DNA of 64,000 nucleotides from Ferruginibacter sp. (GCA_965247025.1 OZ252000.1:1169458-1233457), one strand, 5' to 3'. Counted from the stretch's first letter, positions 31,886 to 64,000 are shown. Made by a program: numbers and translations. Notes: generated by a model from the letters alone, not told the origin.

Positions 31886-31920
31886 CACAACTCAGTATTG
31901 CCTGGCAATCAAACAGGATA

Positions 31921-48696: not shown

Positions 48697-48757
48697 TTTA
48701 CCAATTTGTAAACGGTAAATCAAGATTTTCAGTATTCGTTGGGTATAGCAGGGTTGC

Positions 48758-48797
48758 AGGCAATTCATTAATTAACGGAATCTCCGCAGGTTAAAAC
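48758..48797 (-). other. hairpin-plus-core module (last, leftmost copy) marking the end of the cassette-like array
   Basis: The minus strand reads TTTTAAC-CTGCGGA-GATTC-CGTTAATTAATGA-ATTGCCT. This is the same layout as the modules at 49343, 53087, 54386, 55301 and 63270. Confidence 0.45.
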
Positions 48798-48936
48798 AAA
48801 GAGTTCCATTTTCAGATTTTCAATTGTGGCATGCTGCAATAAGCCAGGCACCAATCTTCTAACTCCACATTAATAGCCCGGCTACTGCTGGTTCAATCAA
48901 TCCCGAAAACTTTTATGTTGATGGCAGATGTTAAAT

Positions 48937-49299
48937 TTACCATTGTTGAATAATAACGCCCAACTGTTTATCCATCAAAGCAAACTCCTTTGCGCCCCAT
49001 GGGCGGAGTGTAATTTCTTTTAGATTTGGATGAAGAAATTCAGGATGAGATTTAGAAACTTTTTCGTAAACTTCTTCAATGTTGTTGGTTACCAGTCTAA
49101 ATTCAGGATTATGCTCTTTCGCATAGCGGGCATTTTCAAAAAGATTTATGCGCAAGCCATCTTTTTCTAATACACAAAATGGCTGACCGGACTTTATCTC
49201 ATCATGTCCAATAGTAAAATCAAGACAATCAACAAACAATTTCAAACCATCTTTTATATTAACATAAAAAACGTTTGGAACAATTTTTTCAAAATTCAT
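48937..49299 (-). CDS. VOC (glyoxalase/bleomycin-resistance) family protein
   Basis: 120 aa. It opens VPNVFYVNIKDGLKLFVDCLDF and ends RPWGAKEFALMD. Confidence 0.8.
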   Translation of the reverse strand: MNFEKIVPNVFYVNIKDGLKLFVDCLDFTIGHDEIKSGQPFCVLEKDGLRINLFENARYAKEHNPEFRLVTNNIEEVYEKVSKSHPEFLHPNLKEITLRPWGAKEFALMDKQLGVIIQQW

Positions 49300-49342
49300 A
49301 CACTAAGCTTTTTGAATTTAAAAGAGGTGTTGTTACAATTAC

Positions 49343-49440
49343 AGCCAACTCATTAAATGCCGCAACCAGCGGCAAGTTAAAAATTGGTTATTGATAATAA
49401 ACATTTACAGCTGTACATTTTAAAATGCAGGTTGCTTTAT
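49343..49440 (-). repeat. family-D element, partial (hairpin-plus-core module and adjoining segment)
   Basis: The plus strand reads AGCCAAC-TC-ATTAAATGCCGC-AACCA-GCGGCAAGTTAAAAA.... On the minus strand it ends in the GTTGGCT core 44 nt upstream of the VOC start. Confidence 0.55.
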
Positions 49441-49643
49441 TTCAAACACTGCATCGCCATAGCCCGCCTATCTCCGCTTCGGTTAATCCCAAAAGCTTTC
49501 GGGACATAACCGGATTTTCGGTAGCACTGCATTTCATTCCAGCCATACATGTTGAGCCTAACCAAATAACTAAAAGCATAAGAATTAAGTTAATTTATGG
49601 AAATGCCGAACCAAGTGAGCCACGAACCAATGCAGGTAGTATT

Positions 49644-49732
49644 GGTGATTAAATATCATCATGCCTCTAGTAACTACCTGGCACAGGAAAACCACCGCAT
49701 AAAACTCAGTCTCATTCCTGCGCCTGAAAGCA
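49644..49732 (-). repeat. family-E ~90-bp structured repeat
   Basis: GGTGATTAAATATCATCATGCC...GGCACAGGAA(49680-49689)...TTCCTGCGCC(49715-49724). Other copies lie at 53606 and 56052. Confidence 0.65.
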
Positions 49733-49914
49733 ATCAAAAACAAATGAAAAACAAGAGCATAAAAAACTATTACAAAAAACTAAATAACTTTAATCAAAAT
49801 CATCCTGAAAACGCCGGGCAGTATTTAGTTTAAAACCGTCAACCTTTTTAGTACCAGTCAGGTAACAGGTTTGAGTTTATGATTGGCCCATGATATTTTT
49901 TTAAGGTGCATTGA

Positions 49915-49980
49915 GGAGAGTTTAAGGTGGAGAGTAAAGCGGGGGAAGGGACTGAATTTATTATCCGATTGCCTGTAGCA
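49915..49980 (+). pseudogene. orphan C-terminal fragment of a histidine kinase (HATPase G2/G3 region)
   Basis: It translates as GEFKVESKAGEGTEFIIRLPV, is preceded by an in-frame TGA at 49912, and has no upstream kinase body. Confidence 0.4.
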
Positions 49981-50026
49981 GGAGAAAGGGCTTTTTTTAA
50001 TTTACGTTTTAATTGCAAACTCACTC

Positions 50027-52006
50027 ATGTTATTTAAAATGAAAGTCGCAAAAAAGATTGCCCTCATATTCATTCTATTGTGTTGTTCGCTTTTTATTAA
50101 AGCGCAAAATAATTATGCAGATAGTTTGAAACAACAACTAACAGTAGCCAAAGAAGATGTAAACAAGGTTAATTTATTTTCAGAACTGGCAAGATTCTAC
50201 ATGTTTTTTTACCCTGATACATCAGCATATTATGGCAAAAAAGGGTTACAACTGGCGAGACAAGTAAACTACAAAGCAGGGCAGGCAAGTTGCATGTTGT
50301 CACTATGCATAAGCTATACCTTTTCAGGCGATTATATCAGCGCACTTAACTTTGGGCTTGAAGCATCGCCTATATTGGCAGATTTACATGACACTACCCT
50401 GGTTATCTGGAACAATATCCAAATTGCTACCTGCTACCGTCAACTTGAAGATTATGACCAGGCATTGGCCTATGGATTTAAAGCAGATAATTTTTCCAAA
50501 CTCTTTCATCCTGGTTACAACCAGCAAAGTGTAGTTTTTGGATTAATAGGTTCTATTTATGAAAAGAAGAATCAACTTGATTCTGCATTAAATTTTGAAA
50601 AAAAAGCATTTGCTACGGATAGTGGCTGGTGTCAGATATTTCAATTTCTTGGTCAAACCTATGCTAAAAAAGGCCGCCTGGATTCAGCATTAAATTACTA
50701 TGAAAGAGGTTTAGGCAATTCCGTAAAAGAAAACAATACGGTGGCATTTATAGATCTGTGTAATAACCTCTCCAAAATTTTTGAATCTACCGGACATACA
50801 GATTCTTCGTTATTCTATGCCAACAAAGCTATTCCGCAGTTTGGAACAAAAACCAATCCTGAAGGTTTACTGGAGCTTTCCACACGCCTTGCCAGGCTTT
50901 ATGAAATGCAGGGAAAACCGGATAGTACCATAAAATATCTAAAAGTTGAGAATACGTTAAAAGACATTTTGTACAGCCGGAAGAAAACCCGGGAGGCACA
51001 AAATTTTGCCTTTAATGAAAAGTTACATCAACAGGATCTTATCTCTCAGCATCAAAGAGATGAAAACAAAATAAGAATAGCTGTACTACTTGCTGTCGTG
51101 CTCATTTTTTTATCAATAGCCTTTTTTCTTTAGAGAAATAACCAGCAAAAACAAAAAGCAAAAACTAAAATTGAAAAAGCGTACGCTGAATTAAAATCGA
51201 CTCAGGCTCAGCTTATTCAAAGTGAAAAAATGGCCAGCCTTGGTGAACTCACTGCAGGCATTGCTCATGAAATACAGAACCCGTTGAACTTTGTGAATAA
51301 TTTTAGTGAAGTAAACAGTGAGTTAATTAAGGAATTAAAAAATGAGGCAGTAAATGGCAACATAGATGAAGTGACTGCCATTGCGAATGACATTGAATCC
51401 AACTCCGAAAAAATCAATCACCATGGTAAACGTGCAGATGCCATTGTAAAAGGCATGCTGCAGCATTCTCGTCAAACATCCGGCGTAAAAGAACTTACAG
51501 ATATCAATGCCTTGTGTGATGAATATTTGCGGCTCGCTTATCATGGCCTGCGTGCAAAAGACAAAAGTTTTAATGCTGATTTAAAAACGGAGTTTGATAA
51601 CACAATTGGTAAAATAAATATTGTGCCGCAAGACATGGGACGGGTATTATTAAATTTATTCAACAATGCTTTTTATGCAGTAAATGAAAAGAAGAAAACT
51701 GCTGAAAACAATTATCTTCCAACAGTTTTGGTACAAACAAAAAAGATAAATGATAAGGTTGAAATATTGGTTGAAGACAATGGCAATGGCATTCCTGATT
51801 CAATAAAAGAAAAAATCTTTCAGCCATTTTTTACCACCAAACCCACCGGACAGGGAACAGGATTGGGATTGAGTTTAAGTTATGATATTATTAAGGCACA
51901 TAAAGGAGAAATAACAATGGAAACAAAAGATAAAAAAGAGGAGATGGTTGATATGGGGAAAAGCAAAGGAACAAGATTTATAGTTCAACTTCCAACAACT
52001 GCCTGA
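50027..52006 (+). pseudogene. TPR-sensor histidine kinase interrupted by one in-frame TAG (51131-51133)
   Basis: ORFs 50027-51133 (signal, TPR repeats, TM segment ...LLAVVLIFLSIAFFL*) and 51230-52006 (H-box IAHEIQNPLNF, N-box LLNLFNNAFYA, G-boxes DNGNGI and GTGLGLS) are in the same frame. Read-through gives RNNQQKQKAKTKIEKAYAELKSTQAQLIQSEKMASLGELTAG, the normal linker of this kinase class. Confidence 0.75.
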
Positions 52007-52184
52007 TAAAAATAAAATAGCTGTTTGCTGTGTTTCCGCTCCGTGCCTCCCTTAAAATTCAAACCTTCCCAGCCGGTTCTCCTCCACCGTTGCAGCAAAG
52101 CGTGGGTGAGCGATACCCCGGAAAGCTGCCCAAATTTATACCATCCAGCCTGCCAAAGTTTAGCAGCATACCTCAGCAATAAAT

Positions 52185-52330
52185 AATGTTGATGTGGCAA
52201 CCGTTAAACCGTTAATTCAAGCGCCTGCTAAGTAGCGGCGGGTGCTGCAGCCAGCACACAAAAGCGCTGTGTAGAAACCCGCCTGGGAATTGTATAAACT
52301 ATGGAGTGGCGGAATGGAAGGGAAGACTCC
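52185..52330 (-). repeat. family-F ~145-bp repeat
   Basis: AATGTTGATGTGGCAACC...AGTAGCGGCGGGTGCTGCAGCCAGCACACAAAAGCGCTGTGTAGAAACCC...GGAGTGGCGGAATGGAAGGGAAGACTCC. The second copy is at 55899-56038. Confidence 0.65.
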
Positions 52331-52375
52331 CGGCAGAAGGAAGTATGCAGAGCTTTGTGACAAAAACATATTGTA

Positions 52376-53047
52376 TTAAGTAAGTAATTGTCTATTGGCC
52401 TTCCTGAGGAAATTAACACCAGCAAATATTGTCCAAATTGGAAGTGTTAATACACCCATAAATGAACCAATCCAAATAAATTGATGCAAAAAAATATTTG
52501 CAGCTGTATTAGCAGGAATCTTGTCCATCACTTCGTCCGATGGTGCAGGTATATGAAGAATTACATTATCAACAAAAATGGCATACCCAATGGGAAATAT
52601 GCCAACAAGTGTCAGTCCGAAGCCAACAATTATCCCAAACCAGCTGAGCCATTGAGGAATCAGTTCTTTTATACGCCAACATGCAATTATAAGCCAGGCA
52701 CCAAAAATTCCCTGGGGAAACATATACAACGTGTCGGCAAGAATTTTTGGAAAAATAAGCAATAAAAAAAGTATAGTAAAACAGAGAGCACCCACTCCCA
52801 CATTAAGCATTGTTTGCGACTTGTTTAGAGTATGTTCCTGTATAAGTTTAGAAAATGCATTTACAACCGGAATTAAAAAAAGAAATTGAATAATAACACA
52901 GGAATCATGAACTCTGATTGACACAGCTCCATTTTGTGCATCCTGATTCCGAAGCACCAGAAACCCAATTAGAAAAACATATGCTAAAATACCAATTACG
53001 CCGCTGGCAATTCCTGCACGTCCGGCTGAACGATAAGATATATTCAT
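52376..53047 (-). CDS. hypothetical integral membrane protein
   Basis: 223 aa with about 6 TM segments. It is preceded on the minus strand by a hairpin-plus-core module ending GTTGTGT. Confidence 0.65.
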   Translation of the reverse strand: MNISYRSAGRAGIASGVIGILAYVFLIGFLVLRNQDAQNGAVSIRVHDSCVIIQFLFLIPVVNAFSKLIQEHTLNKSQTMLNVGVGALCFTILFLLLIFPKILADTLYMFPQGIFGAWLIIACWRIKELIPQWLSWFGIIVGFGLTLVGIFPIGYAIFVDNVILHIPAPSDEVMDKIPANTAANIFLHQFIWIGSFMGVLTLPIWTIFAGVNFLRKANRQLLT

Positions 53048-53086
53048 ATTAAAAATCTGTATTTATTACAAAAGTAATTTAAGCTT

Positions 53087-53205
53087 GCACACAACTTGTT
53101 GCAAGCCGCAGTTACCGGCGGGTTAAAAATAAGATTTAATTGATAATGAATGGGTTACAGGAGTACATTTTTAGATTGTTGGTTGCGGCAGCCTCCTTCC
53201 ATTTA
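53087..53205 (-). repeat. family-D element, partial
   Basis: GCACACAAC-TT-GTTGCAAGCCGC-AGTTAC-CGGCGGGTTAAAAATAAGATTTAATTGATAATGAATGGGTTACAGGAGTACATTTTTAGATTGTTGGTTGCGGCAGCC. Confidence 0.55.
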
Positions 53206-53293
53206 ACCTTGGCCTGCGTTCGTGGCTCACGAATGTAAAATGTTCTTCAGCCAATAACCAAGACAGGAGCACTCAGCCCACGGGGGCAGACAT

Positions 53294-53425
53294 TTAAGGG
53301 AGATGTATATTTAATCTAAAATGCTTTATCAGCAATTCTAAAAGCTTTATAAGTATGCCGGTAATTATAATAACAGTTAATACAATTCTTAGCCATTTGG
53401 GAATAAAGTCTTTCTCTTTTTTCAT
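53294..53425 (-). CDS. possible 43-aa single-TM peptide (below the ORF-track size cut-off)
   Basis: My own translation gives MKKEKDFIPKWLRIVLTVIIITGILIKLLELLIKHFRLNIHLP*. There is no other support. Confidence 0.3.
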   Translation of the reverse strand: MKKEKDFIPKWLRIVLTVIIITGILIKLLELLIKHFRLNIHLP

Positions 53426-53605
53426 TTGCTGAATATAACATTCGCCTCAATCAAAAACAAGTGGCGCCGGATTTTTTGTTTTTCTTTTTTTGGAGTTGTC
53501 TTTACAATTTTCAAGATACTTTACCGGCTGTTTGTCAAAAACAAGTTATAATAATTTGTCACGAATGTAAAATGTTCGTGAGCCACTAACCAGGGCAGGG
53601 GAATT

Positions 53606-53693
53606 GGTGATTAAATAATATCATGCCTTTAGTAATTGACCGGCACAGGAAACCCACTACACAAAGCTCAGCCTCATTCCTGTGCCTAAAAGC
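53606..53693 (-). repeat. family-E structured repeat
   Basis: A perfect 10-bp stem GGCACAGGAA (53642-53651) / TTCCTGTGCC (53678-53687) around a 26-nt loop. Confidence 0.65.
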
Positions 53694-53750
53694 ATTTCGA
53701 TTTGTTAACCACACCAGCGCTTAATGGGGAGTGTTGTGCAACTTCTCTTG

Positions 53751-54311
53751 TCATTCGTTTTTTAAGAAGACCAAATTGTCAACATACAATTCTGTTGCTT
53801 GCTTTTTCCCACCGATAATTTTTATTAATGCAGAGTCAACTGTCAATGAATTTTGTGAGATAGGAATTTCTATTTTTCTGTAAGTCTGATTTGATGATGT
53901 TTCATAAAAATTTCCCTTGTCAATTATGTTATTTCCTGAAAATAAGTCTATGTGTATTGTTGCAGTGTCTCCATTAGCAATAGTTGATTTTATGTAACCA
54001 GTCAACAATGTAGGGTGTAATGAAATTGGGAATATATTGTTTGCAAAACTGTTGTAAAGATTATTATAAATAAATTTAGCAGCAAATTGTCCATTAGAAA
54101 CATCTGTCACTTTTTTTACAATGTAGGTTTCATATGGTGGAACACAAGCTGGACAGCTATTCGTCTGCCAACTATATAAATTTGGCATATTGTCCCACAA
54201 CTCAAAGTCTCCATTTGGAATTGGGATTATCTGTTGGTTTACATTGTCCTTTTTACAAGCAAAAAATGTCAGCATAAATAATGTAGCTATTGAAAATTTT
54301 ATTGCTTTCAT
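53751..54311 (-). CDS. lipoprotein, function unknown
   Basis: The lipobox-type signal is MKAIKFSIATLFMLTFFAC. The mature part begins IPNGDFELWDN. Confidence 0.7.
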   Translation of the reverse strand: MKAIKFSIATLFMLTFFACKKDNVNQQIIPIPNGDFELWDNMPNLYSWQTNSCPACVPPYETYIVKKVTDVSNGQFAAKFIYNNLYNSFANNIFPISLHPTLLTGYIKSTIANGDTATIHIDLFSGNNIIDKGNFYETSSNQTYRKIEIPISQNSLTVDSALIKIIGGKKQATELYVDNLVFLKNE

Positions 54312-54385
54312 AATATTTGTTTTAGTTATGACAACAGTTTCTTGTCAATCGTTGCACTGAATTATTGAAGTGGTCGTTTTGCATT

Positions 54386-54548
54386 ACACACCACTCGTTA
54401 ATTGCAGCAATTAGCGGGAGGTTAAAATAAAGATTTTGTTGATAATGAATAAGTTACAAGGGGTACATTTTAAATTGTGAGTTACGGCAATCTCCTCATA
54501 CATAAATGTATCACTTTTTATGTAAACTCCCCTACCTCACAAACAAGC
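54386..54548 (-). repeat. family-D ~165-bp element, full copy
   Basis: It is identical to 63270-63432 at most positions by eye, including the internal hairpins TACATAAA...TTTATGTA and ATTGCCG.AA...TTGC.GCAAT. On the minus strand it ends GTGGTGT 75 nt upstream of the lipoprotein ATG. Confidence 0.7.
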
Positions 54549-54686
54549 ATTCCGTTCTTCTCCATCAGGCGCAGGGCTCCGGCCCTGTGTCTCCATGTTA
54601 CTAATTTTTGCAAATCAGAAACCATCCAATATTACAAAATTCAGCAGCCCTTTTTAGTTGTGAGATAATCAATTGCAGGGCTGTAA

Positions 54687-54805
54687 AGTCAACGCCAGTT
54701 TTCACTTACAAACCCTGCCGTTACCGGGTTCTGATTGACCCATCTGAAAAAAGTTGCGACACAGCTTTCGGCCGCCCAGCTTTTGTAAGTACTTTTATTG
54801 GCGGC
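54687..54805 (-). other. attC-like site after the CMD-family gene (~119 bp)
   Basis: The minus strand reads ...CCGCCAATAAAAGTACTTACAAAAGCTGGGCGG ... CGGCAGGGTTTGTAAGTGAAAACTGGC-GTTGACT, with imperfect inverted arms. The arm sequence is related to the 61151-61356 site. Confidence 0.5.
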
Positions 54806-54901
54806 AGTATTGTAATTCAGATAATGTGTCAAATATCTTTTGAATATTTTGTGGAGTCAAAGGGATTTAATCTTTCCTCAAGACATCTTTGTAATATATT
54901 A

Positions 54902-55231
54902 TCATTGTTTTGATTCAAACATTTCTTTAGCAATCATTATGGCTGTCATTGCTCTTGGCCAACCAGTATAGAATGCTAAATGAGTTATTACACCAACTAG
55001 TTCAGCTTCTGTCAGTCCATTATCTTTTGCACGGCTTAAATGATATTTTAGTTGTCCAGAATGTTCGCCTGTAACTAAAGCTGCAACAGTGATTAGACTT
55101 CTATCTCTTGGAGAAAGTTCTTTTCCTTCCCATACATCACCAAAAAGTACATTGTCTGTATATTCGACAAGCTTTGGTGCAAAGTCTCCTATCATTTTTT
55201 TTGCAGCGGATATTTTCTCTTCGTTACTCAT
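54902..55231 (-). CDS. carboxymuconolactone decarboxylase (AhpD-like) family protein
   Basis: 109 aa. It carries PRDRSLITVAALVTGEHSGQLKYHLSRAKDNGLTEAELVGVITHLAFYTGWP. Confidence 0.85.
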   Translation of the reverse strand: MSNEEKISAAKKMIGDFAPKLVEYTDNVLFGDVWEGKELSPRDRSLITVAALVTGEHSGQLKYHLSRAKDNGLTEAELVGVITHLAFYTGWPRAMTAIMIAKEMFESKQ

Positions 55232-55300
55232 TTGAATTATTTTTTAAAATGGTCAATGTGATTTTAGTAAAGCATATTTTTAAGGTTCGCCAAATATTGA

Positions 55301-55375
55301 AACCAACTTGTTAAATGCCGCAACTCACGGCGGGTTTAAAAACAAAGTTTTATCAATAATCAATCACCAACCACA
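55301..55375 (-). repeat. family-D element, partial (hairpin-plus-core module)
   Basis: AACCAAC-TT-GTTAAATGCCGC-AACTCA-CGGCGGGTTTAAAAAC. The minus-strand core GTTGGTT lies 70 nt upstream of the CMD start. Confidence 0.55.
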
Positions 55376-55417
55376 GACGCAGGAAATTAAGTGAAAAACT
55401 CCGGAAAGGATTATTAC

Positions 55418-55804
55418 CTACTGTTTGCTCAAGATTTCTGAAGCATCAAACTCTTGCTTAAACAACAGATGAATCAAAATGGCTTTGGTTGAGGTATTTT
55501 CAACTTCAGCGTAAGAGGAAACGAATTTCCAATTTTTTAAACTCATGTAGTTTAATATTACCACGCTACTTGAAATATCTTTAATATTCATAACACTGTC
55601 CAGGCTTTGACTAACAGTTTCATCTTTAAATGTAAAGTAAGTTTGTCCATAATCTATCGAATTGATTTTGTAGCCGGTACTCCAAACTCGGCTATTCATT
55701 ACCACTTCACAAAATTTCTCCACCTTTTGGGAATAAGAAACTCTTGCCGTTGATACAATTAAAATTATCAGTACAGACAAGGCTTTTAGTAATGATGTTT
55801 TCAT
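55418..55804 (-). CDS. secreted hypothetical protein
   Basis: The signal peptide MKTSLLKALSVLIILIVSTARVSYSQ starts at the ATG at 55804. The longer track ORF runs into repeat F. Confidence 0.6.
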   Translation of the reverse strand: MKTSLLKALSVLIILIVSTARVSYSQKVEKFCEVVMNSRVWSTGYKINSIDYGQTYFTFKDETVSQSLDSVMNIKDISSSVVILNYMSLKNWKFVSSYAEVENTSTKAILIHLLFKQEFDASEILSKQ

Positions 55805-55898
55805 TTTTTTGGCAGTATATTTTTTAAAAAGGTTTAAATTTTTCCACCATCGGTTCTCTACTCCAGGTAAAAGCAAAGAGCAGAACTTAAAGACAGGT

Positions 55899-56038
55899 AA
55901 TGTTGGTGTGGCAACCATTCATTCATGCCCCCTGCTGAGTAGCGGCGGGTGTTGCAGCCAGCGCACAAAAGCAATGCGTAGAAACCCGACTTGAAATTTT
56001 ATAAATTACAGAGTGGCGGAAATTGAATGGAAGACTCC
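55899..56038 (-). repeat. family-F repeat
   Basis: Second copy of the 52185-52330 element. The small internal stem co-varies: GCGCA/TGCGT here versus ACACA/TGTGT there. Confidence 0.65.
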
Positions 56039-56051
56039 AAGCAAAAAAATT

Positions 56052-56139
56052 GGTGCTTTAATATTATCATGCCTTTAGTAATTGCCCGGCACAGGAGACC
56101 AAACGCACAAAGCTCAGCCTCACTCCTGCGCCTAAAAAA
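56052..56139 (-). repeat. family-E structured repeat
   Basis: The stem is GGCACAGGAG (56088-56097) / CTCCTGCGCC (56123-56132). One position shows a compensatory change relative to the other copies. Confidence 0.65.
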
Positions 56140-56357
56140 TTGAAGCGGCACCTTATTGACCTCAACGAAAGAAAGGACCAGCCAAATGTAAAAAAACAGT
56201 AAGAATCAAAGCAGGAAAGTACCTGAAGCAACCAACCAACCTTCCTGTTGCTACCGTTTACCCATCCGGTTCAAAGAGTCTGCTCCTGCCAGCTTCCGTA
56301 AAGCCACACCACCAATTATTCAAACCCCATAAGTAATAGCCCGGCTACCTCCGGTTC

Positions 56358-56423: not shown

Positions 56424-56434
56424 GTAGGCAAAGT

Positions 56435-56584
56435 CTATTTTGCAGTCTGTAACTTGTTTTTGTTCAAGTATTCTTTGAATTCAGCGAAACTCATTTTTTC
56501 GGTTTCCTTTGCAATTTTTTCCTTAATTTCTCTGAACACTTTTACTGTGTCAAAAGTTTTTTCTTTTTTATTTGTCGTTTTCAT
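56435..56584 (-). CDS. small protein downstream of the PIN gene (possible antitoxin/partner)
   Basis: 49 aa from the ATG at 56584: MKTTNKKEKTFDTVKVFREIKEKIAKETEKMSFAEFKEYLNKNKLQTAK. It overlaps the PIN stop by 17 nt. Confidence 0.45.
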   Translation of the reverse strand: MKTTNKKEKTFDTVKVFREIKEKIAKETEKMSFAEFKEYLNKNKLQTAK

Positions 56585-57035
56585 TGTATACAATTTCTTT
56601 TGGTGAACGAATGTCAAGTTGTGAATAACCACAACGTAAATTTATTGAATTGTAGCCACGAATTCTAAAAACGTTTACAATGTGTTTAAAGTTCCAACTC
56701 ACTAAAAAGTCCACTTTGTTAAGCGTTGCAGTTGCAATATGTCTACAATCGTCTGCACTTGTCGGACCAACAACTTTTTCATCTAAATATTTTTGAGCAA
56801 GTTCGTAAGCTTCTTCTGTCACTTCTACAAACTGCAAATGTTCTTTGGGTAAGTCTGCAAAAAAATCTCTAACTCTTTGTGGTGCATTTTTAAGTTCTGT
56901 TTCTGAAAGGTCTGAATAAACACAAATTATCTGTCCTAACTTTACCTTTTCAAATAGCAAAGTTGAGATTTCTTCAAATTCCTCATCGTAAACTCCTCCA
57001 AAAACAGAAGTGTCAAAATATAACCTTGGTTTCAT
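56568..57035 (-). CDS. PIN-domain (VapC-like) protein
   Basis: 155 aa with N-terminal YFDTSVF (acidic residue 1), SADDCRHIATA and SWNFKHI. Confidence 0.75.
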   Translation of the reverse strand: MKPRLYFDTSVFGGVYDEEFEEISTLLFEKVKLGQIICVYSDLSETELKNAPQRVRDFFADLPKEHLQFVEVTEEAYELAQKYLDEKVVGPTSADDCRHIATATLNKVDFLVSWNFKHIVNVFRIRGYNSINLRCGYSQLDIRSPKEIVYNENDK

Positions 57036-57116
57036 TCTGCAAATTTACAAATAATTGGTCAAGTTGTATTTGTTTGTCAATTTTGGGTGGTCTGTCGGTT
57101 GCTTACGCCCAACGAG

Positions 57117-58861
57117 AGTTTGTGAAAAAACTCCTTTAGCCAAATATACACACAATGTGAATAGCGTAAACAGCGTATGATTTTTGTTATAAAAAAGGCA
57201 TGCAGTTTATACAAGGAAACAACAGACATCAAACCTACTTCACCACACCCGACGACCAGGTGAGTGCTGACAATGCAGCAAGGCTCATGGATGCTTTTAT
57301 TGATAAGCTTGATCTGCAAAAATTAGGCTTTACCGGCACGGTTCATAAAAGTGAAGGCCGGCCGCCGTATGCACCCGGAGTGCTGTTAAAATTGTACCTC
57401 TACGGCTATCTCAATAAAATCCGCAGCAGCCGGAAGCTCGAAAAGGAATGCAGCCGAAACATTGAACTGCAGTGGCTGTTGCAGGGACTGCAACCTAACT
57501 ACCACACCATTGCAGATTTTCGTAAAGTACATGCAGTGCCTTTACAATCCATGTTTAAACTGTATGTACAGTTTCTTAGCGATGCAGGCCTGCTGGGCAA
57601 AACAACCATCGGTATAGATGGCAGTAAGTTTAAAGCAGTTAACAGTAAAAAGAATAACTACAACCAAAAAAAGATAGATAAGCACCGCCAGTTTATTGAA
57701 GACAAAACTGCGAAATATTTACAGGAACTCGATGAACTGGATCAGCAGGAAAACGTGGCTGCCAGTGATGAACTCCTGCTAAAAAAAGAAAAGATAGCAC
57801 AGGGCCTCGCCAGGCTAAAAGAACGCACCATTAAATACGATACGCTTCAGCACCAACTGGATGCTACGGATGATAAGCAGGTTAGCACCACTGATGCTGA
57901 CAGCCGCAGCATACTTATAACCAAAAGTATTGTAGAAGTTGCCTATAATACACAGAATGCTGTGGACGATAAACACAACCTGATAGTACATACACAAGCC
58001 ACCAATACCAATGATGGCAAGGCTCTACACAAAGCAGCTATACAAGCCAAACAAAATCTGCAATTAAAAAAAGAAGACAGCCTGATGGTGCTGGCAGATA
58101 AAGGTTACCATACCGGTGCTGAGCTGCTCGAATGTCAGCAGGAAAACATGATCACCCATGTAGCGTATAAAGAACAGCCTGGTGTCAAACACATTGCCAA
58201 CGAATTTTTAGTTGAAAGCTTTAACTATAATAAACTGGCAGATACCTATACCTGCCCCGCCGGTGCAGTACTAACGTCACTGGGTACCTGGCACAATAAA
58301 AAAGGTGAAGCAAATGAAACCAGCTACCGCTTTAAAACATACCGTACCGGTGCCTGTAAAACATGCCCGTTAAAAAGCCAGTGTACCAAACTTCCCAAGC
58401 GCATTATCCAGCGTAGTGAATACCAGGATGCGGTAGACCTCAATGATAACAACATCAAAAAAAATCCCCAATATTACAAGCGAAGACAAGCCATTTGTGA
58501 ACATCCCTTTGGCAGTATAAAAAGGCATTGGGGTTACACACATACACTGCTGAAAGGATTGCAAAAAGTAAATGGTGAAATGAACCTCATCATGTTTTGT
58601 TACAACTTTATGCGAACCAAAAACATACTCGGCTTTGAAAAAATGCTGCAGACAATCAAAAACTGGCAACCAGATTACACCAAAGTAATCTGCCTTTTAA
58701 AAAGCGCCTCTATTAAGCCGATTTACAGACAACATAAGCCTCCATTTTTTTTGAATAATTACTGCGTGGTATTTTTAAGGACTGCCTGAATCAACTTCTA
58801 TTGGCTTGTGGTGAAAAGTTACGGGGCGGTTTTTTGACTTTTTTTAGTTTTCTCACAGTCT
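57117..58861 (+). mobile_element. IS1182-family insertion sequence
   Basis: It has a single transposase ORF. The imperfect terminal inverted repeats are AGTTTGTGAAAAAACT (57117-57132) and AGTTTTCTCACAGTCT (58846-58861), matching at 13 of 16 positions. Confidence 0.75.
57200..58789 (+). CDS. IS1182-family (IS5-like DDE) transposase
   Basis: 529 aa. The N-terminal InsH-type domain reads GRPPYAPGVLLKLYLYGYLNKIRSSRKLEKECSRNIELQWLL...YHTIADFRK. The protein also has a Cys-rich segment CPAG...CKTCPLKSQC and a C-terminal DDE region. Confidence 0.9.
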   Translation: MQFIQGNNRHQTYFTTPDDQVSADNAARLMDAFIDKLDLQKLGFTGTVHKSEGRPPYAPGVLLKLYLYGYLNKIRSSRKLEKECSRNIELQWLLQGLQPNYHTIADFRKVHAVPLQSMFKLYVQFLSDAGLLGKTTIGIDGSKFKAVNSKKNNYNQKKIDKHRQFIEDKTAKYLQELDELDQQENVAASDELLLKKEKIAQGLARLKERTIKYDTLQHQLDATDDKQVSTTDADSRSILITKSIVEVAYNTQNAVDDKHNLIVHTQATNTNDGKALHKAAIQAKQNLQLKKEDSLMVLADKGYHTGAELLECQQENMITHVAYKEQPGVKHIANEFLVESFNYNKLADTYTCPAGAVLTSLGTWHNKKGEANETSYRFKTYRTGACKTCPLKSQCTKLPKRIIQRSEYQDAVDLNDNNIKKNPQYYKRRQAICEHPFGSIKRHWGYTHTLLKGLQKVNGEMNLIMFCYNFMRTKNILGFEKMLQTIKNWQPDYTKVICLLKSASIKPIYRQHKPPFFLNNYCVVFLRTA

Positions 58862-59058
58862 GACGGACAGGGCTTTGTGCAGGTTGGGAAATAGAATTCC
58901 GTCTGCCCGGAACCGCTGCTGATTGAAAAACTGATGATGAAGATAACAACAAAAAGCCAAATAGCATTCCGTCAAGCCCGAACAAAAGCTGAATAGAATT
59001 ACAAATGCTCATTGTTATTCCGTCTGCCCAACTTGCACAAAACCCCTTGTTGTATGCC
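58862..59058 (-). other. long attC-like site of the RiPP cassette, separated from its 3' core by the IS
   Basis: The minus strand reads GGCATACAAC-AAGGGGTTTTGTGCAAGTTGGGCAGACGG ... CCCAACCTGCACAAAGCCCTGTCCGTC, then the IS. The arms are imperfect reverse complements. The expected GTT core (GTTGGGC, 57113-57107) sits on the other side of the IS. Confidence 0.55.
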
Positions 59059-59656
59059 GTTTTTTGTCTGTCGCATAAATTCCGATTGATATTTCTGCAT
59101 AGTTGTAAGTTTTCAAAGTCAATGCGTTAATTGTTGGAAAGTCTGCAACAGTAGTATAATTTTTATTAGTCAATACGTCTTGATAGCAATAAAATAATGC
59201 TAAAATATTAGCACTCTGTAAAACATTTTTTGTCAAATTTTGTAAGTCTCCGTCTGTAAAGTGATATGGGTCTAATAGCACAATATCAAATATCCGTTTA
59301 TTAAAATCAAAACTGTTTGCGTTTTTAATAAAAAAGTTGTCTTTAAAATTTGGATGAATTTCATCTATTGCTTGCTTTATCGAATTCTCTTGAAAGTCAA
59401 TACCAAAAGGGGTTACTTTAAAATTGCAATGGTTAATTAAATGGTTTAGTAGTAAGCCGTTTCCACAGCATATATCTAAAATTTTGCATTTACTTAAAGT
59501 GATATGGTCATTGAGTAGGTCAGAAAAATAATTATATTCTTTAAATGGATATTTGTCAAAACCATTTGGAATATTCAAGTCGTTATGGTTTGTATTCCAA
59601 TACTTTGATTTGTAAAAATCATATTGGCTTTTGTAGAATACTTCGCTTTTGTTCAT
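59015..59656 (-). CDS. class I SAM-dependent methyltransferase (RiPP cassette)
   Basis: 213 aa with motif I ILDICCGNG. It overlaps the radical SAM gene by 38 nt, and its last 14 codons run into the attC-like site. Confidence 0.75.
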   Translation of the reverse strand: MNKSEVFYKSQYDFYKSKYWNTNHNDLNIPNGFDKYPFKEYNYFSDLLNDHITLSKCKILDICCGNGLLLNHLINHCNFKVTPFGIDFQENSIKQAIDEIHPNFKDNFFIKNANSFDFNKRIFDIVLLDPYHFTDGDLQNLTKNVLQSANILALFYCYQDVLTNKNYTTVADFPTINALTLKTYNYAEISIGIYATDKKRHTTRGFVQVGQTE

Positions 59657-60782
59657 ATTGTTTCAAATTCTTTGCTACACAATTGTCAATATACGAAATA
59701 ATTTTTTTGAGGTCAGCACAATATACACTTGGGTTGTCAAATTTGTTTTCTGTAGAATATCTATTTGGTAAATATCCACCACCACAAATATTAACTATCG
59801 AACATTCTTTACAAGTCTGGCATAAAACATCAATTCCTAATTGTCGTGATACAACTTGTGTGTGTTGTGCTACTTCATTAAAAGTATTGTCAAAAACATT
59901 ATGATTTATTTTTGTTGCTCCATTAAATGAACTTTTTAACGTATCGAGGATTTCAATATCTCCGTTTGCTTCAATAAAAATAAAATCAATTGGGCTTGTT
60001 CCAATACTTTCAACGTTTGAGTTTCCACCAATAAGAAGTTTAACTATGTTTTCTAAAACTCTAATCTTTGTATCGGTTTCTTTATAAAACCAATTGTCAA
60101 ATATTGTGTTTATCCATTCTGCAATTTTTGTGGTTTGCAAGTCTTTATCTTTTCCATTTGGTCTTCTATCAAAGTTGTCGTCGGGAAAGAGCAAATCTAT
60201 CATTGGTGGGTTAAATGACATAAAGTAATCAAGAACTTCCACTGGATTAGAGTCGACATTTATAACTCCGAGTATGCCACGAAAAATAGATTTGTATTTC
60301 TCTGATGTTAAAAGCTCAAGTTTTTTTTCTAGTCGTTCTGAACTTCCTTTGCCATTATGGTCTACACGGTGTAAATCATTTATTTTCGGAGGTCCGTCTA
60401 TGCTAACTCCAATACTACCATTATATTTCAGAAAAAAGTCGCCAATTTCTTCAGTAAATAATAATCCATTTGTTTGAATTCCTAAATCTACTTTTATATT
60501 GTTGTCTATAAGTTCTGTTTGAATTACTTCTCCTAATCTATGCAATTTCTTTGCTCCAATTAATAATGGTTCTCCACCGTGAAAAGCTATAGAGATATGA
60601 TTTTTTGAGTGGAATTGGCAATGTTCTCTAATCTTTTGACAAGCAACTCGAAATGTTTTTTCCGAGATAAATTTTGGTTGGTCTTGCCAAGAGTTGTCTT
60701 CAAGATTATAAACGTAACAATAGGAACAATTTAGATTACATCTACTTGCTATTTTGAAAATGTATGAATGGAATGGTATCAT
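59619..60782 (-). CDS. radical SAM/SPASM peptide maturase, FxsB-like (cyclophane-forming family)
   Basis: - CX3CX2C cluster: KIASRCNLNCSYCYVY.
- FHGGEPLL, GIQTNG, SIDGPPKINDLHR and LLFPDDNFDRRP.
- C-terminal SPASM: CQTCKECSIVNICGGGYLPNRY...FDNPSVYCADL.
- The ATG at 60782 is preferred over the TTG at 60788. Confidence 0.8.
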   Translation of the reverse strand: MIPFHSYIFKIASRCNLNCSYCYVYNLEDNSWQDQPKFISEKTFRVACQKIREHCQFHSKNHISIAFHGGEPLLIGAKKLHRLGEVIQTELIDNNIKVDLGIQTNGLLFTEEIGDFFLKYNGSIGVSIDGPPKINDLHRVDHNGKGSSERLEKKLELLTSEKYKSIFRGILGVINVDSNPVEVLDYFMSFNPPMIDLLFPDDNFDRRPNGKDKDLQTTKIAEWINTIFDNWFYKETDTKIRVLENIVKLLIGGNSNVESIGTSPIDFIFIEANGDIEILDTLKSSFNGATKINHNVFDNTFNEVAQHTQVVSRQLGIDVLCQTCKECSIVNICGGGYLPNRYSTENKFDNPSVYCADLKKIISYIDNCVAKNLKQYEQKRSILQKPI

Positions 60783-60798
60783 CGTCAAGTATTTTTTG

Positions 60799-60841
60799 AA
60801 AAAAAAATAGCAGGCTCTTTCGTATCTAATTGAGCCTGCTA
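60799..60841 (-). terminator. hairpin plus T-run between the precursor ORF and the maturase (attenuator-like)
   Basis: The minus strand reads TAGCAGGCTC-AATTAGATACGAAA-GAGCCTGCTA followed by TTTTTTTTT, beginning 5 nt after the precursor stop. Confidence 0.55.
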
Positions 60842-60845
60842 TAAA

Positions 60846-61034
60846 CTAAGAACGAGAATGACCGCCACCACTATTGTGGTTTTGGTGTGACATACTTTGC
60901 TTTTCATTGTTGTTAACAGCCGTAGCTATTTTTTTCAACATTGCATTTTGCAAAGTATTAATTCTCTCTGTTGACATAGATTTTACATTTAATCCTGTCA
61001 ACATTGGCTGTGTCGAACTAATGTTCTGTACCAT
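60846..61034 (-). CDS. candidate RiPP precursor peptide with a His-rich C-terminal core
   Basis: MVQNISSTQPMLTGLNVKSMSTERINTLQNAMLKKIATAVNNNEKQSMSHQNHNSGGGHSRS*. It has a helical leader-like N-terminus and a core with three His-x-x triplets (HQN, HNS, HSR). It lies directly upstream of the maturase. The start could be M1, M11 or M20. Confidence 0.55.
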   Translation of the reverse strand: MVQNISSTQPMLTGLNVKSMSTERINTLQNAMLKKIATAVNNNEKQSMSHQNHNSGGGHSRS

Positions 61035-61150
61035 CTGGAATTAATTTAAGCATAATGTCTACTCTATTCACTTTTCGACTTCCGTGCCTTACTCTTTTTT
61101 CGATTTTCAGGTATCTCGATTTGTCTATGCGTTGAGGGGTTCGCTAAAAT

Positions 61151-61356
61151 GGCATACAACGTTTGAGTACTTACGAAGGCTGGGAATTGTTGCTGGTCTA
61201 GCCCCGGCCGACTGAAGCTAAATTAATGATAAATGTTGATTGTTACCACGTCCGATGACCAGATTTCCGTCCGCTGGAACCGCTGCTGAATAAAGTACAA
61301 AAGTTGCGACACGGCTTCCGTCCCGCCCAGCTTTTGGAAGTACTTTTGTTATGTGC
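61151..61356 (-). other. long attC-like site of the methyltransferase cassette (~206 bp)
   Basis: The minus strand reads GCACATAAC-AAAAGTACTTCCAAAAGCTGGGCGG ... CCCAGCCTTCGTAAGTACTCAAAC-GTTGTATGCC. It has imperfect inverted arms of ~25 nt. Confidence 0.6.
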
Positions 61357-61372
61357 TGCCCTTGTTTGGCTA

Positions 61373-61990
61373 TCATTTAAGGTGTCTTTTGAAGCTACAA
61401 AACAGGAAATTTTGTGTTGTGTCAAAAGGTGTTTTGTGGTCTTCTGTTATGCAACGTAATTTATCAAAACCGTTTTGAAGTTCTGTTGATAATTTTTCTT
61501 CACTATATTGTTTAATTTGTAATCCACTACATTTTTCTGGTCCATTGTCCGAAAAAGTTCCAATAGTCAAAAATCCTCTTACAGAATTTCTTGCTGTGTT
61601 CATATACTTTGCAATTTGTTCACTTGTTGTTAAAAAGTGAAAAGTTGCTCTATCGTGCCAAATGTCAAAAGTTGTTTCAGGCTGAAATTCTGTGATGTCG
61701 CTAACTACCCAATTTATTTTTTCAGCTTTGTTACCTAAACGTTGTTTTGCTTTTGCAAGTGCTTGTGCTGAAATGTCAAGTACTGTAATATTTTCAAAAC
61801 CTTCGTCAAGTAAATAGTCAACAAGTTTACTGTCACCACCGCCAATGTCTATGATTTTTGCGGACTTGGTCAAGCCGAAAGAATGTATAAATTCTAAAGA
61901 GGTTTTTGGTACTTCTTGTGTCCAACTTACTTGGTCTGGGTTTTTAGTTTTGTAAACTGTGTCCCAATGATTTTGTGTTGTCTTATCCAT
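61373..61990 (-). CDS. class I SAM-dependent methyltransferase
   Basis: 205 aa with motif I IIDIGGGDSKL and post-I VLDIS. Confidence 0.85.
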   Translation of the reverse strand: MDKTTQNHWDTVYKTKNPDQVSWTQEVPKTSLEFIHSFGLTKSAKIIDIGGGDSKLVDYLLDEGFENITVLDISAQALAKAKQRLGNKAEKINWVVSDITEFQPETTFDIWHDRATFHFLTTSEQIAKYMNTARNSVRGFLTIGTFSDNGPEKCSGLQIKQYSEEKLSTELQNGFDKLRCITEDHKTPFDTTQNFLFCSFKRHLK

Positions 61991-62239
61991 ACTACAAAGG
62001 TCTAAATGAAAAATTATTCAATGTGTGACAAATGTTACATTAGGGTTGCACATAACGAAAGGGCTTTGCGCAGGTGTAGCATTAGAATTCCTTCCGCCCG
62101 GAACTGCTGCTTGGCCTTTTGTTAAAGATAAATATTAAGAACTAAATGCTCAGCTTTTTTCGTCCGCCCGAACCACCGCCCGGCTATGTAAAACTGTTGA
62201 TTGCTGCAACGTCAAGCCACACTTGTGCAAAACCCCTTG

Positions 62240-62452
62240 TTATGCACTCGTGTTTAAAAAAGTGTCCGCTCGTTTGATGAAATATCTTTTTTGAAGACGT
62301 ATGAATTTAACGCCAAGCAAATAAACTTTTGAAATAAAAATTACCAAAAAAACTGTCCACCCATGAGCTGCAAAAGCAAACTTAAAAATGATGAAAAAAG
62401 ATTTACTGCTGAACAGTTCCGTCCGCCCGAGTATGAACCGCAAAGCGAACAT
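62240..62452 (-). CDS. 70-aa hydrophobic peptide, copy 1
   Basis: MFALRFILGRTELFSSKSFFIIFKFAFAAHGWTVFLVIFISKVYLLGVKFIRLQKRYFIKRADTFLNTSA, with two hydrophobic stretches. The ATG lies 3 nt after the core. Coding status is unproven. Confidence 0.4.
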   Translation of the reverse strand: MFALRFILGRTELFSSKSFFIIFKFAFAAHGWTVFLVIFISKVYLLGVKFIRLQKRYFIKRADTFLNTSA

Positions 62453-62645
62453 GGTGCATAACGAAAGGGCTTTGCGCAGGTGTAGCATTAGAATTCCTTC
62501 CGCCCGGAACTGCTGCTTGGCCTTTTGTTAAAGATAAATATTAAGAACTAAATGCTCAGCTTTTTTCGTCCGCCCGAACCACCGCCCGGCTATGTAAAAC
62601 TGTTGATTGCTGCAACGTCAAGCCACACTTGTGCAAAACCCCTTG

Positions 62646-62858
62646 TTATGCACTCGTGTTTAAAAAAGTGTCCGCTCGTTTGATGAAATATCTTTTTTGA
62701 AGACGTATGAATTTAACGCCAAGCAAATAAACTTTTGAAATAAAAATTACCAAAAAAACTGTCCACCCATGAGCTGCAAAAGCAAACTTAAAAATGATGA
62801 AAAAAGATTTACTGCTGAACAGTTCCGTCCGCCCGAGTATGAACCGCAAAGCGAACAT
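62646..62858 (-). CDS. 70-aa hydrophobic peptide, copy 2
   Basis: The translation is identical to copy 1. Confidence 0.4.
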   Translation of the reverse strand: MFALRFILGRTELFSSKSFFIIFKFAFAAHGWTVFLVIFISKVYLLGVKFIRLQKRYFIKRADTFLNTSA

Positions 62859-63053
62859 GGTGCATAACGAACAGGGCTTTGCGCAGGTGTGGCATTAGAA
62901 TTCCCGTCAGCCCGGAACTGCCGCTTGGCCATGTGTTAAAGATAAATATTAAGAACTAAATGCTCAGCTTTTTTCGTCCGCCCGAACCACCGCCCGGCTA
63001 TGTAAAACTGTTGATTGCTGCAACGTCAAGCCACACTTGTGCAAAACCCCTTG

Positions 63054-63266
63054 TTATGCACTCGTGTTTAAAAAAGTGTCCGCTCGTTTAATGAAATATC
63101 TTTTTTGAAGACGTATGAATTTAACGCCAAGCAAATAAACTTTTGAAATAAAAATCACCAAAAAAACTGTCCACCCATGAGCTGCAAAAGCAAACTTAAA
63201 AATGATGAAAAAAGATTTACTGCTGAACAGTTCCGTCCGCCCGAGTATGAACCGCAAAGCGAACAT
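63054..63266 (-). CDS. 70-aa hydrophobic peptide, copy 3
   Basis: The translation is identical to copy 1. The longer track ORF (to 63386) extends into repeat D. Confidence 0.4.
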   Translation of the reverse strand: MFALRFILGRTELFSSKSFFIIFKFAFAAHGWTVFLVIFISKVYLLGVKFIRLQKRYFIKRADTFLNTSA

Positions 63267-63269
63267 GGT

Positions 63270-63432
63270 GCATAACTCGTTAATTGCCGCAATTAGCGGC
63301 AGGTTAAAAATAAAGATTTGATTGATAATCAATAAGTTACAGGGGGTACTTTTTAGATTGTCGGTTGCGGCAATCTGCTCATACATAAATGTATTACTTT
63401 TTATGTAAACTCCCTCTACCTCACAAACAAGC
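63270..63432 (-). repeat. family-D ~165-bp element, full copy
   Basis: The minus strand reads GCTTGTTTGTGAGG...TACATAAAAAGTAATACATTTATGTA...GATTGCCGCAACC...TTTTTAAC-CTGCCGC-TAATT-GCGGCAATTAACGA-GTTATGC, ending exactly at the core that starts the third tandem cassette. Confidence 0.7.
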
Positions 63433-63745
63433 CTTCCTCCATTTTTCTCAACAGCCCCAATGTACTAATCGTTTCCAGCAAATGCCCAATCTGTTGCTCA
63501 TAAGCCGAATTAGCAGGTTTGGGTTTATCAAACTTAACAGGCCGCTCAAAAGTGTAAGCGGCTTCATGCACTTTGTCAGATGCCGGTCTGGGTTTTTCAA
63601 CCCCCGGCAATTCACACAATTTTGTAAAGAACAGCTGGTAGTTGGCCCATTCAGCTGCACCGGAGGCTTTCCAGCGGGTGATAAAATGTTTGGTATTTGC
63701 AACAATATTCTGGTCAGGCATCAATGTTAATGGGTTATCTGGCAA
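63416..63745 (-). pseudogene. N-terminal fragment of an MmeI/BREX-PglX-type DNA methyltransferase
   Basis: FITRWKASGAAEWANYQLFFTKLCELPGVEKP...AYTFERPV is the usual N-terminus of these large enzymes. The similarity stops after ~75 aa and the frame runs into repeat D. Confidence 0.45.
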
Positions 63746-63971
63746 TATACTGCATTGACAAATACTCTGTTAATGCATGCATCAAATATATTGGAACCGG
63801 GCTTTTCTTTTTAGGGTTAAAACACCCATTTTTTAAGGGTGTTTTTAACGGCATACCGTCTTAAATAGATGTTCACCCGGTTGTAATGAAGGGCTAATTA
63901 CCTGTTTACACAATTTACTTTACACTTTCCTCCTCTCCGATCGTACCAGGCTTCATTACTGATCATACTTA

Positions 63972-63996
63972 GCCTCTATACCGATCGTATAGAGGC
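63972..63996. other. perfect 10-bp-stem hairpin at the window edge
   Basis: GCCTCTATAC-CGATC-GTATAGAGGC. A related CCGATCGTA motif lies 40 nt upstream. Confidence 0.4.
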
Positions 63997-64000
63997 CGCA

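Follow-up and report, generated by a model that had tools for sequence, protein, structure and literature searches.

We analysed 64,000 nucleotides of Ferruginibacter sp. DNA (GCA_965247025.1 OZ252000.1:1169458-1233457; hereafter the window, numbered from its first base). We conclude, with a probability of roughly 75 %, that positions 48.7-64 kb are the distal portion of a chromosomal array of gene cassettes that belongs to an integron-like, Bacteroidota-specific system, on which a tyrosine recombinase lacking the I2 helix of integron integrases acts. The array continues past the right edge of the window (64000) and comprises an intact chain at 63.3-56.4 kb and a decayed and rearranged part at 56.3-48.7 kb. 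A first-pass annotation, made from the sequence alone, had described the region as an integron-style cassette array with folded sites and strand exchange at a G↓TT core (the arrow marks the point of exchange), and this description is supported by the complementarity of the cassette boundaries, the covariation of the sites and their linkage to a recombinase gene in related loci.

Complementary boundaries and a family of folded sites

Read on the minus strand, six consecutive boundaries between the core at 63276 and the site at 56417 pair at 6/6 positions each and at up to 12/13, the bases after a GTT core being the partners of those before the AAC with which the next site opens. The start of the methyltransferase cassette, GTTATGTGC (62056-62048), pairs with GCACATAAC (61356-61348), that of the peptide-maturation cassette, GTTGTATGCC (61160-61151), with GGCATACAAC (59058-59049), and that of the PIN cassette, GTTGGGCGTAAGC (57113-57101), with GCCTACGCCCAAC (56429-56417), the pair complementary at 12/13 positions. 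All eight boundary strings quoted in the first-pass annotation were found exactly where it had placed them, including GTTATGCAC and GTGCATAAC, which occur in three copies each. Its proposal that a triplicated unit loses identity with its neighbours at the CATAAC/GTTATG core holds for the 406-408-bp unit of tandem family D1, similarity to the flanking sequence ceasing at GTTATG, and so does that of a shared internal GC-rich motif, TTCCGTCNGCCCG being present in 11 copies, all on the plus strand between 58.9 and 63.2 kb, against 0.07 expected by chance.

Each site carries three internal direct repeats. Folded end to end, the 66-bp site of the PIN cassette gave z = -3.8/-4.4 and a 200-bp site z = -1.6/-1.9 with the outer stem retained in the centroid, and five window sites match a profile of the 190-bp site at E = 2.5e-8 to 3.8e-53 (nhmmer). 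Repeat comparison and profile search confine the repeats of 48.7-64 kb to that region, with 0 copies in the other 48 kb. In the window Rfam and tRNA searches gave 0 matches, a simple scan for AAC...GTT stems at low threshold gave 15 matches against 4-16 in shuffled sequence, and 9-mer boundary links taken alone formed chains of 2-3 in shuffled sequence likewise. When the hairpin criteria were relaxed, a scan of the entire window returned 170 matches, so evenly spread as to be useless for setting boundaries left of 56.3 kb.

A 21-nt pattern taken from the 5′ arm of the site identified 26 loci in a collection of one-genome-per-species contigs, where ~1 match was expected by chance as estimated from pattern length and collection size. 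Nearly all of the loci are from Bacteroidota, spanning Chitinophagaceae, Ferruginibacter, Cytophagales, Saprospiraceae, Flavobacterium, Hymenobacter, Arcicella and Daejeonella, and the full ~190-bp site is present in 26/26. Co-oriented arrays with a spacing of 0.7-2 kb were found by profile search in six loci (L018, L017, L008, L015, L020 and L036), the first with eight sites in 6 kb and the next two with five each. The window array has the same profile-matching, co-oriented hairpins with boundary complementarity as this Bacteroidota system. Across the related arrays the 6-nt extension before AAC is the perfect complement of the extension after the GTT of the preceding site in 25/35 cases, compared with 5/58 when the partner is the site's own GTT and 2.7 % of random pairs, and the variant core GTA covaries with a TAC partner.

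Alignment of 35 distinct arm pairs showed pairing in 89.3 % of cells and compensatory changes at 14/20 stem pairs, with a covariation score of 0.347 compared with 0.110 after shuffling (0/500 shuffles reach 0.347) and ≤0.076 with slid partners. The stem is ~20 bp long with conserved non-Watson-Crick positions; an A opposite C is conserved and unpaired in 32/35 sites, and the AAC/GTT box is separated from the stem by an asymmetric internal loop (5′ side, 1-3 nt; 3′ side, 4-6 nt). The sites fold end to end as first proposed, but their imperfections are conserved mismatches and an asymmetric loop, not bulged bases, conserved single-base bulges being absent. They fall into two length classes, with 33 sites of 120-129 bp and 46 of 180-199 bp; their AAC...GTT boxes are invariant or nearly so and the core consensus is GTTRNNNGC. 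They share with attC sites the inverse core, the core and the exchange signature at G↓TT, but differ in their wider consensus and do not combine extrahelical bases with the length of about 55-141 bp that is canonical for attC.

The longest open reading frame (ORF) is in the sense orientation in 76 of 80 cassette-like units, its end facing the short-spacer side of the site; median distances are 27 nt from the stop codon to the AAC that follows and 57 nt from the core to the start codon. Boundary complementarity reads alike from both strands and so does not alone fix the orientation of an array. The minus strand is assigned here because it yields three identical units of body plus 190-bp site where a plus-strand reading yields hybrids, because related arrays open with an ORF, not a site, straight after an attI-like core (L020, L027, L029), and because of the way in which the short-spacer side faces the ORF end.

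An I2-less recombinase linked to the arrays

In 2/26 loci a tyrosine recombinase gene lies just upstream of the array and in the same direction, and a third locus (L009) retains a C-terminal recombinase fragment in that position and orientation. A reconstructed copy (P0108 family) identified >7,700 relatives and >550 metagenome loci; the best 120 of the >7,700 relatives have ~355 amino acids and identities of 69-96 % (69-76 % for nearly all) and carry no other name than 'site-specific integrase/XerD'. The closest solved structures are those of archaeal XerA (4a8e, 5hxy), then IntI4 (2a3v), with XerD (1a0p) fourth. Alignment to Vibrio IntI4 breaks into two pieces, the I2-helix region of IntI4 (residues 186-247) being replaced by 19 residues. 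Against the integron-integrase model TIGR02249, with a cut-off of 265 bits, intact members reach 182-196 bits, and against the XerA model, with a cut-off of 220 bits, they reach 186-210 bits; the family falls below every curated family cut-off. The insertion by which integron integrases are defined is thus absent from the array-linked recombinase of related loci, and the assignment of the array to classical integrons that was made initially is not supported. The family has an extra conserved N-terminal domain of ~88 residues and an IntI-like C-terminal SPLD tail. An AlphaFold model has a mean predicted local distance difference test (pLDDT) value of 57 and is confident only for the N-terminal domain (residues 10-90, pLDDT about 88), which is confidently predicted to be a small beta/alpha fold. 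A gene for a single-stranded DNA-binding protein (SSB) consisting of an oligonucleotide-binding (OB) fold only lies beside the integrase in 14/85 loci, about one in six, all of them of closer relatives. In viral contigs a single site match and a single close relative of the integrase were found, which gives no sign of phage carriage.

In the loci retrieved with the integrase an attI-like core is found 132-253 bp from the integrase gene, with direct and inverted repeats upstream, and the integrase-adjacent site ends in ...TGCG(Y)ATATTNANGA immediately before GTTRNNNGC. Arrays begin at such a core 130-250 bp from the recombinase, in fixed orientation, in >15 loci; such a core is followed by a cassette and then by a hairpin site that is complementary, at its start, to the core extension, and the pattern continues along the chain. 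Chained cassettes follow the attI-like core in L020 and L027, and L036 has 12 sites within 10 kb after the integrase. A strict detector requiring a perfect 9-nt boundary link plus a hairpin found 95 units compared with 2 in shuffled sequence. With respect to the integrase gene, 24 units lay downstream in its own orientation and 0 downstream in the opposite one; of the upstream units 14 were divergent from it and 1 shared its strand. One family thus employs both a co-directional and the classical divergent layout. Three pairs of platforms (L043/L044, L098/L104 and L029/L028) are 98.5-100 % identical through integrase and attI and diverge from GTTA(T/G) onward, such that the first cassette differs between nearly identical platforms, whose identity breaks off at the GTT core. 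The two checks that the first-pass annotation had suggested, core breakpoints between related genomes and an integrase with attI beside the arrays, are thus both positive in other genomes, and it is in these related loci, not in the window, that a site beside the integrase takes up cassettes. That annotation had expected a plus-strand intI; the integrase is co-directional with the cassettes in three platforms of the 190-bp type, and the minus strand is therefore to be expected here. In one Ferruginibacter-like genome (L028, 11644-20296) 8.6 kb separate the attI-like core from the cassette that is first in L029; this stretch, which holds a whole ilv operon and a region of poly-G runs, is either a very large attI insertion or an assembly artefact.

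It is unlikely that the window contains a classical integron array, whether sedentary chromosomal or an attC cluster without integrase, with an I2-bearing IntI encoded elsewhere and the Xer-like recombinase a bystander. The attC-like architecture (AAC...GTT boxes, exchange at G↓TT, compact co-oriented ORFs) would suit such an array, Bacteroidota are listed among integron-bearing phyla in reviews (PMC8618304, PMC9668308), and the source-chromosome flank past 64000 is outside the sequence examined. However tblastn of IntI1 (used as a probe only) against all loci returned the I2-less family only, and it is beside the I2-less recombinase that arrays start in >15 loci and that cassettes turn over. 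The lengths of 120 or 190 bp and the absence of single-base bulges likewise speak against classical sites. In Bacteroidetes, IntegronFinder surveys found a single complete integron, that of Salinibacter, and otherwise just lone integrases; the attC model of that program therefore appears not to see these arrays.

Cassettes of the intact chain

The intact chain consists of three gene-less cassettes, a methyltransferase cassette, a three-gene cassette for a ribosomally synthesized and post-translationally modified peptide (RiPP) and a PIN pair (Table 1). The gene content first proposed is borne out for the CMD-family protein, the two methyltransferases and the radical-SAM maturase with its 62-amino-acid peptide; the PIN assignment is weak and the VOC protein is one weak match. 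Genes are mostly on the minus strand as had been proposed for all of them, the exceptions being the insertion sequence (IS) transposase and a split kinase gene described below.

Table 1. Features of the cassette array in the window and of damaged integrase genes in related loci
Feature	Position	Strand	Evidence or remark
MmeI-type methyltransferase remnant ORF, N- and C-termini-like pieces fused	63416-63745	-	Pfam MmeI_N weak, E = 0.0084
S63, attI-like site, core GTT 63276-63274	63265-63345	-	Upstream boundary of first triplicated cassette
Cassette X copy 1, ~210-bp body and 190-bp hairpin site 62866-63055 (paired extension to 63061)	62866-63275	-	nhmmer E = 4.8e-41; tandem family D1
Cassette X copy 2, site 62460-62647	62460-62865	-	nhmmer E = 7.8e-39; folding
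Cassette X copy 3, site 62054-62241	62054-62459	-	Site end GTTATG, then TGC
Methyltransferase cassette, ORF 61373-61990, 193-bp site 61158-61350	61158-62053	-	Pfam Methyltransf_25/12/11
Peptide-maturation (RiPP) cassette, site 58863-59051 (190-bp class)	58863-61157	-	nhmmer E = 3.8e-53
62-aa peptide ORF of RiPP cassette	60846-61034	-	
FxsB-family cyclophane-forming radical-SAM maturase	59619-60788	-	TIGR04269, 389.8 bits (cut-off 370)
Methyltransferase of RiPP cassette	59015-59656	-	
IS1182-family insertion sequence, transposase 57200-58789	57115-58862	+	Pfam DUF772 and DDE_Tnp_1_6
PIN cassette, ORFs 56568-57035 and 56435-56632, 58-bp hairpin site 56362-56419 (extension to 56429)	56362-57113	-	PIN match weak
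Decayed unit: D4 (56048-56137), D7 (55898-56046), 166-aa ORF 55418-55918, S55 (core 55307-55305)	55305-56361	-	
CMD-family cassette, ORF 54902-55231, degenerate 115-bp site 54691-54805	54691-55304	-	Pfam CMD 1.7e-20
Second methyltransferase-remnant module, ending in S54 (core mutated to GTG, 54394-54392)	54392-54690	-	
Lipoprotein-like ORF 53751-54311, D4 53602-53691, S53 (core 53095-53093)	53093-54391	-	
Membrane-protein ORF 52376-53047, D7, split kinase gene, D4, S49 (core 49349-49347)	49347-53092	-	
Distal array end: VOC/bleomycin-binding-like ORF 48937-49299, hairpin-site remnant 48890-48923	48753-49346	-	NCBIfam bleO E = 8.5e-4; repeat D19
S48, degenerate sixth attI-like site, core ATT	48753-48802	-	nhmmer E = 0.0063
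Damaged integrase, internal stop	L036 10001-11050		
Damaged integrase, core-binding domain lost	L020 2590-3409		
Damaged integrase, ~125-bp insertion	L006 3374-4578		

The chain opens at S63, whose end, TGCGGCAATTAACGA directly followed by GTTATGCAC, agrees with the attI ends TGCG(Y)ATATTNANGA before GTT that lie beside integrases in 13 loci; it folds into two local hairpins with no end-to-end pairing. The methyltransferase-remnant ORF and the S site that follows it form a module, which is duplicated at 54393-54553 (163 nt, 90 % identity). No convincing gene was found in the body of cassette X (62054-63275), which contains a hydrophobic 70-amino-acid ORF on the minus strand, a 32-amino-acid ORF on the plus strand and one further copy of the GC-rich site motif; the identity of its third copy to the others ends at the junction given in Table 1. 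The site of the methyltransferase cassette is a diverged member of the 190-bp class whose arms covary with the family.

The fifth site, that of the peptide-maturation cassette, is interrupted at its core by the IS1182-family element, inserted precisely at G↓TT with the junctions CCGT followed by CAGACTGTGAG (IS end CAGACTGT) and AACTCT followed by CGTTGGGCG. A related IS end (CAGACTGT...) interrupts a site at the identical position in a Ginsengibacter metagenome-assembled genome (L001, ~125-311). IS1111-attC insertion sequences and group IIC-attC introns are known to target attC sites, and by analogy the IS1182-family element may target cassette sites. The likeness lies in an IS at the crossover core of a cassette site; the element here differs in encoding an IS1182-family DDE transposase, not one of the IS110/IS1111 type, and the comparison comprises two observations only.

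The ORFs of the PIN cassette are likely a toxin-antitoxin pair. The pair (56435-57064) shares 87 % DNA identity with positions 8546-9175 of a metagenome contig (L034), where it immediately precedes an integrase gene of the family and is not accompanied by a hairpin site; these genes therefore occur both inside and outside a cassette.

The decayed part and its attI-like sites

Left of about 56.3 kb the boundaries are less clear, as had been recognised from the outset. The site at 54691-54805 is related to that at 61158-61350 but lacks an internal segment (repeat D20, 93 %). It corresponds to the ~119-bp site previously placed at 54687-54805, which is thus present, but begins with AAT instead of AAC, folds weakly (z about -1) and has an unpaired boundary extension. 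No recognisable hairpin site was found in the unit at 53093-54391. Six attI-like sites (S sites) lie inside the array, with minus-strand cores at 63276, 55307, 54394, 53095, 49349 and 48764. They carry the motif TTGC(C/G)GCAA three times, and an ORF starts 48-83 nt past the core in four cases. By profile search they occur solely in this window, while their ends resemble the attI ends of other platforms. That those at 63.3, 55.3, 54.4, 53.1 and 49.4 kb are short attC hairpins was considered and rejected, the sites showing neither an end-to-end fold nor boundary pairing.

The distal array also contains a TPR ORF (50027-51133) and a HisKA/HATPase ORF (51230-52006) on the plus strand, which resemble the two parts of a single sensor-kinase gene (50027-52006) interrupted by a stop codon or a frameshift. 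Two structured non-coding repeats, D4 (49640-49729, 53602-53691, 56048-56137) and D7 (52184-52338, 55898-56046), occur only in the decayed half, D4 with a 10-bp hairpin maintained by compensatory changes. Elsewhere in the window, 20 kb from the array, positions 19873-29125 hold a type I restriction-modification locus that is complete (HsdR, HsdS and HsdM) and includes an additional helicase. Intergenic direct repeats of two further families (65-205 nt, identity 72-91 %), at 6665-15592 and 31398-36071, are unrelated to the cassette sites.

Proposed mechanism and its weighing

In the mechanism that we propose, each cassette would be a short stretch of usually co-oriented ORFs ending in an imperfect hairpin site of ~120 or ~190 bp. 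A recombinase related to Xer and IntI (~355 amino acids, with the extra N-terminal domain, I2-less and sometimes with an SSB neighbour) would exchange strands at G↓TT, joining a folded cassette site either to the integrase-adjacent attI-like site or to a second cassette site, so that cassettes could be inserted, excised and reshuffled. The structure of the sites, the position of the crossover, the linkage of array, integrase and attI and the turnover of cassettes at the attI core are established by the comparisons above. The substrate is probably the folded single-stranded or extruded site, as in integrons, because the bases after GTT pair with bases ~1 kb away that become adjacent only in the excised, folded cassette, and because the stem covaries across about 130 nt of variable sequence. 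The I2-less integrase is the presumptive catalyst, and the source genome would encode such an enzyme past the right edge of the window, probably on the minus strand. Candidate substitutes for the I2 helix are the conserved mismatch, the asymmetric loop, the three internal direct repeats, the N-terminal domain and the SSB. Judged by its sequence, the array would then function like an integron, but with a recombinase that, in the related loci, lacks the insertion of integron integrases.

The I2 helix has been held to explain both the recognition of folded attC sites and the avoidance of a second strand exchange (PMC7790495), and an Xer-like enzyme that lacks the helix by which IntI reads folded DNA could be thought to act on double-stranded DNA, as in the Xer-dependent dif modules of Acinetobacter plasmids, recognising a short core only, with the hairpins serving in termination or protein binding. 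The attI-like sites, as ordinary double-strand sites with repeated binding motifs, would suit such an enzyme, as would the presence of several of them inside the window array. This explanation is nevertheless improbable, as the 6-10 bases after GTT covary with the far end of the cassette and not with the adjacent site, the 14/20 compensatory stem pairs span those 130 nt, and all sites are in direct orientation whereas dif modules alternate. Xer-dif modules as such (28-bp sites of two 11-bp arms and a 6-bp spacer, alternating) were considered and rejected, the sites here being direct-orientation hairpins of 120-190 bp. Intergenic repeats of the repetitive extragenic palindrome or miniature inverted-repeat transposable element type, the scenario by which the first-pass annotation would have been refuted, could be suspected from the unrelated structured repeats D4 and D7 and from the other repeat families of the window, but coincidental complementarity is hardly credible for sites that are missing from the other 48 kb, lie always on one strand directly after ORF ends, covary in their stems, show the boundary signature in 25/35 cases over a 2.7 % background and are linked to a recombinase gene.

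Several points weigh against a cassette array served by an I2-less integrase. As the first-pass annotation had noted for the integrase, neither an integrase nor an integrase-adjacent attI lies within the 64-kb window, and for this reason the array could be an orphan. The six attI-like sites inside the array are not predicted by the model, the boundary signature was not seen left of 56.3 kb, and the spacer asymmetry of the 58-bp PIN-cassette site is reversed relative to the main site classes. Folding energies were tried as a guide to strand choice and dropped, top and bottom strands being equivalent. The integrases beside arrays of the 190-bp type are all damaged (3 loci; Table 1) and those beside arrays of the 120-bp type intact, so that the window array may be old and sedentary. 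Among the 39 integrase loci with ≥1.5 kb of downstream sequence a first cassette was detected within ≤900 bp in only 11 and anywhere downstream in 13, and SSB adjacency is limited to the 14 loci mentioned; both counts are lower bounds because the detector is strict. Finally, every step of the interpretation rests on the analysis of sequences.

Comparison with known systems

We somewhat favour the view that the Bacteroidota hold a second widespread integron lineage, deeply diverged or independent, whose integrase never gained the I2 helix and in which hairpins are read through mismatches and the asymmetric loop; the integrase may possibly use the extra N-terminal domain, the internal direct repeats and a dedicated SSB as helpers. 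If this is so, a phylum regarded as nearly integron-free has thousands of cassette platforms missed by current detection tools, and the I2 helix is not the sole solution, which would provide a natural comparison for the study of strand choice and hairpin recognition. A large mobile pool of accessory genes in Bacteroidota of soil, freshwater, sludge and gut may be invisible to these tools, and the site profile together with the integrase alignment could seed a detector. A literature search returned no account of arrays of this kind together with an I2-less integrase, an absence that is not proof that they are undescribed.

With classical integrons the system shares a tyrosine recombinase gene with an adjacent attI-like site bearing repeated binding motifs, compact and mostly co-oriented cassettes that end in imperfect hairpins closed by AAC/GTT, exchange at G↓TT, cassette starts that pair with the start of their own site, and toxin-antitoxin and defence-type cargo. 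Divergent and co-directional integrase layouts occur in both, the latter being known from Treponema-type integrons. It differs in that the recombinase lacks the I2-helix insertion, which defines IntI and reads bulged bases, and has an extra N-terminal domain of ~88 amino acids; in sites of 120/190 bp with an A.C mismatch and an asymmetric loop in place of extrahelical bases; in the core, GTTRNNNGC versus GTTRRRY; and in the SSB gene beside about one integrase in six. A precedent for the S sites inside the array is provided by cassettes of the Delta-attI type, in which attI-like sequences that bound cassettes within arrays recombine in class 1 and 2 integrons with IntI1 (PMC12901181), although the S sites appear species-specific, being found in the window only, and are likened to these by sequence.

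The best structure matches of the recombinase are to XerA, with which it shares the lack of an I2 helix, and CTX-phi provides a case of an Xer enzyme acting on single-stranded DNA whose fold imitates a duplex site (PMC7790495). The recombinase differs from Xer proteins in its extra N-terminal domain and IntI-like SPLD tail. In place of a 28-bp dif-like site the system has long hairpins in direct orientation, stacked in arrays beside a dedicated integrase with its own attI.

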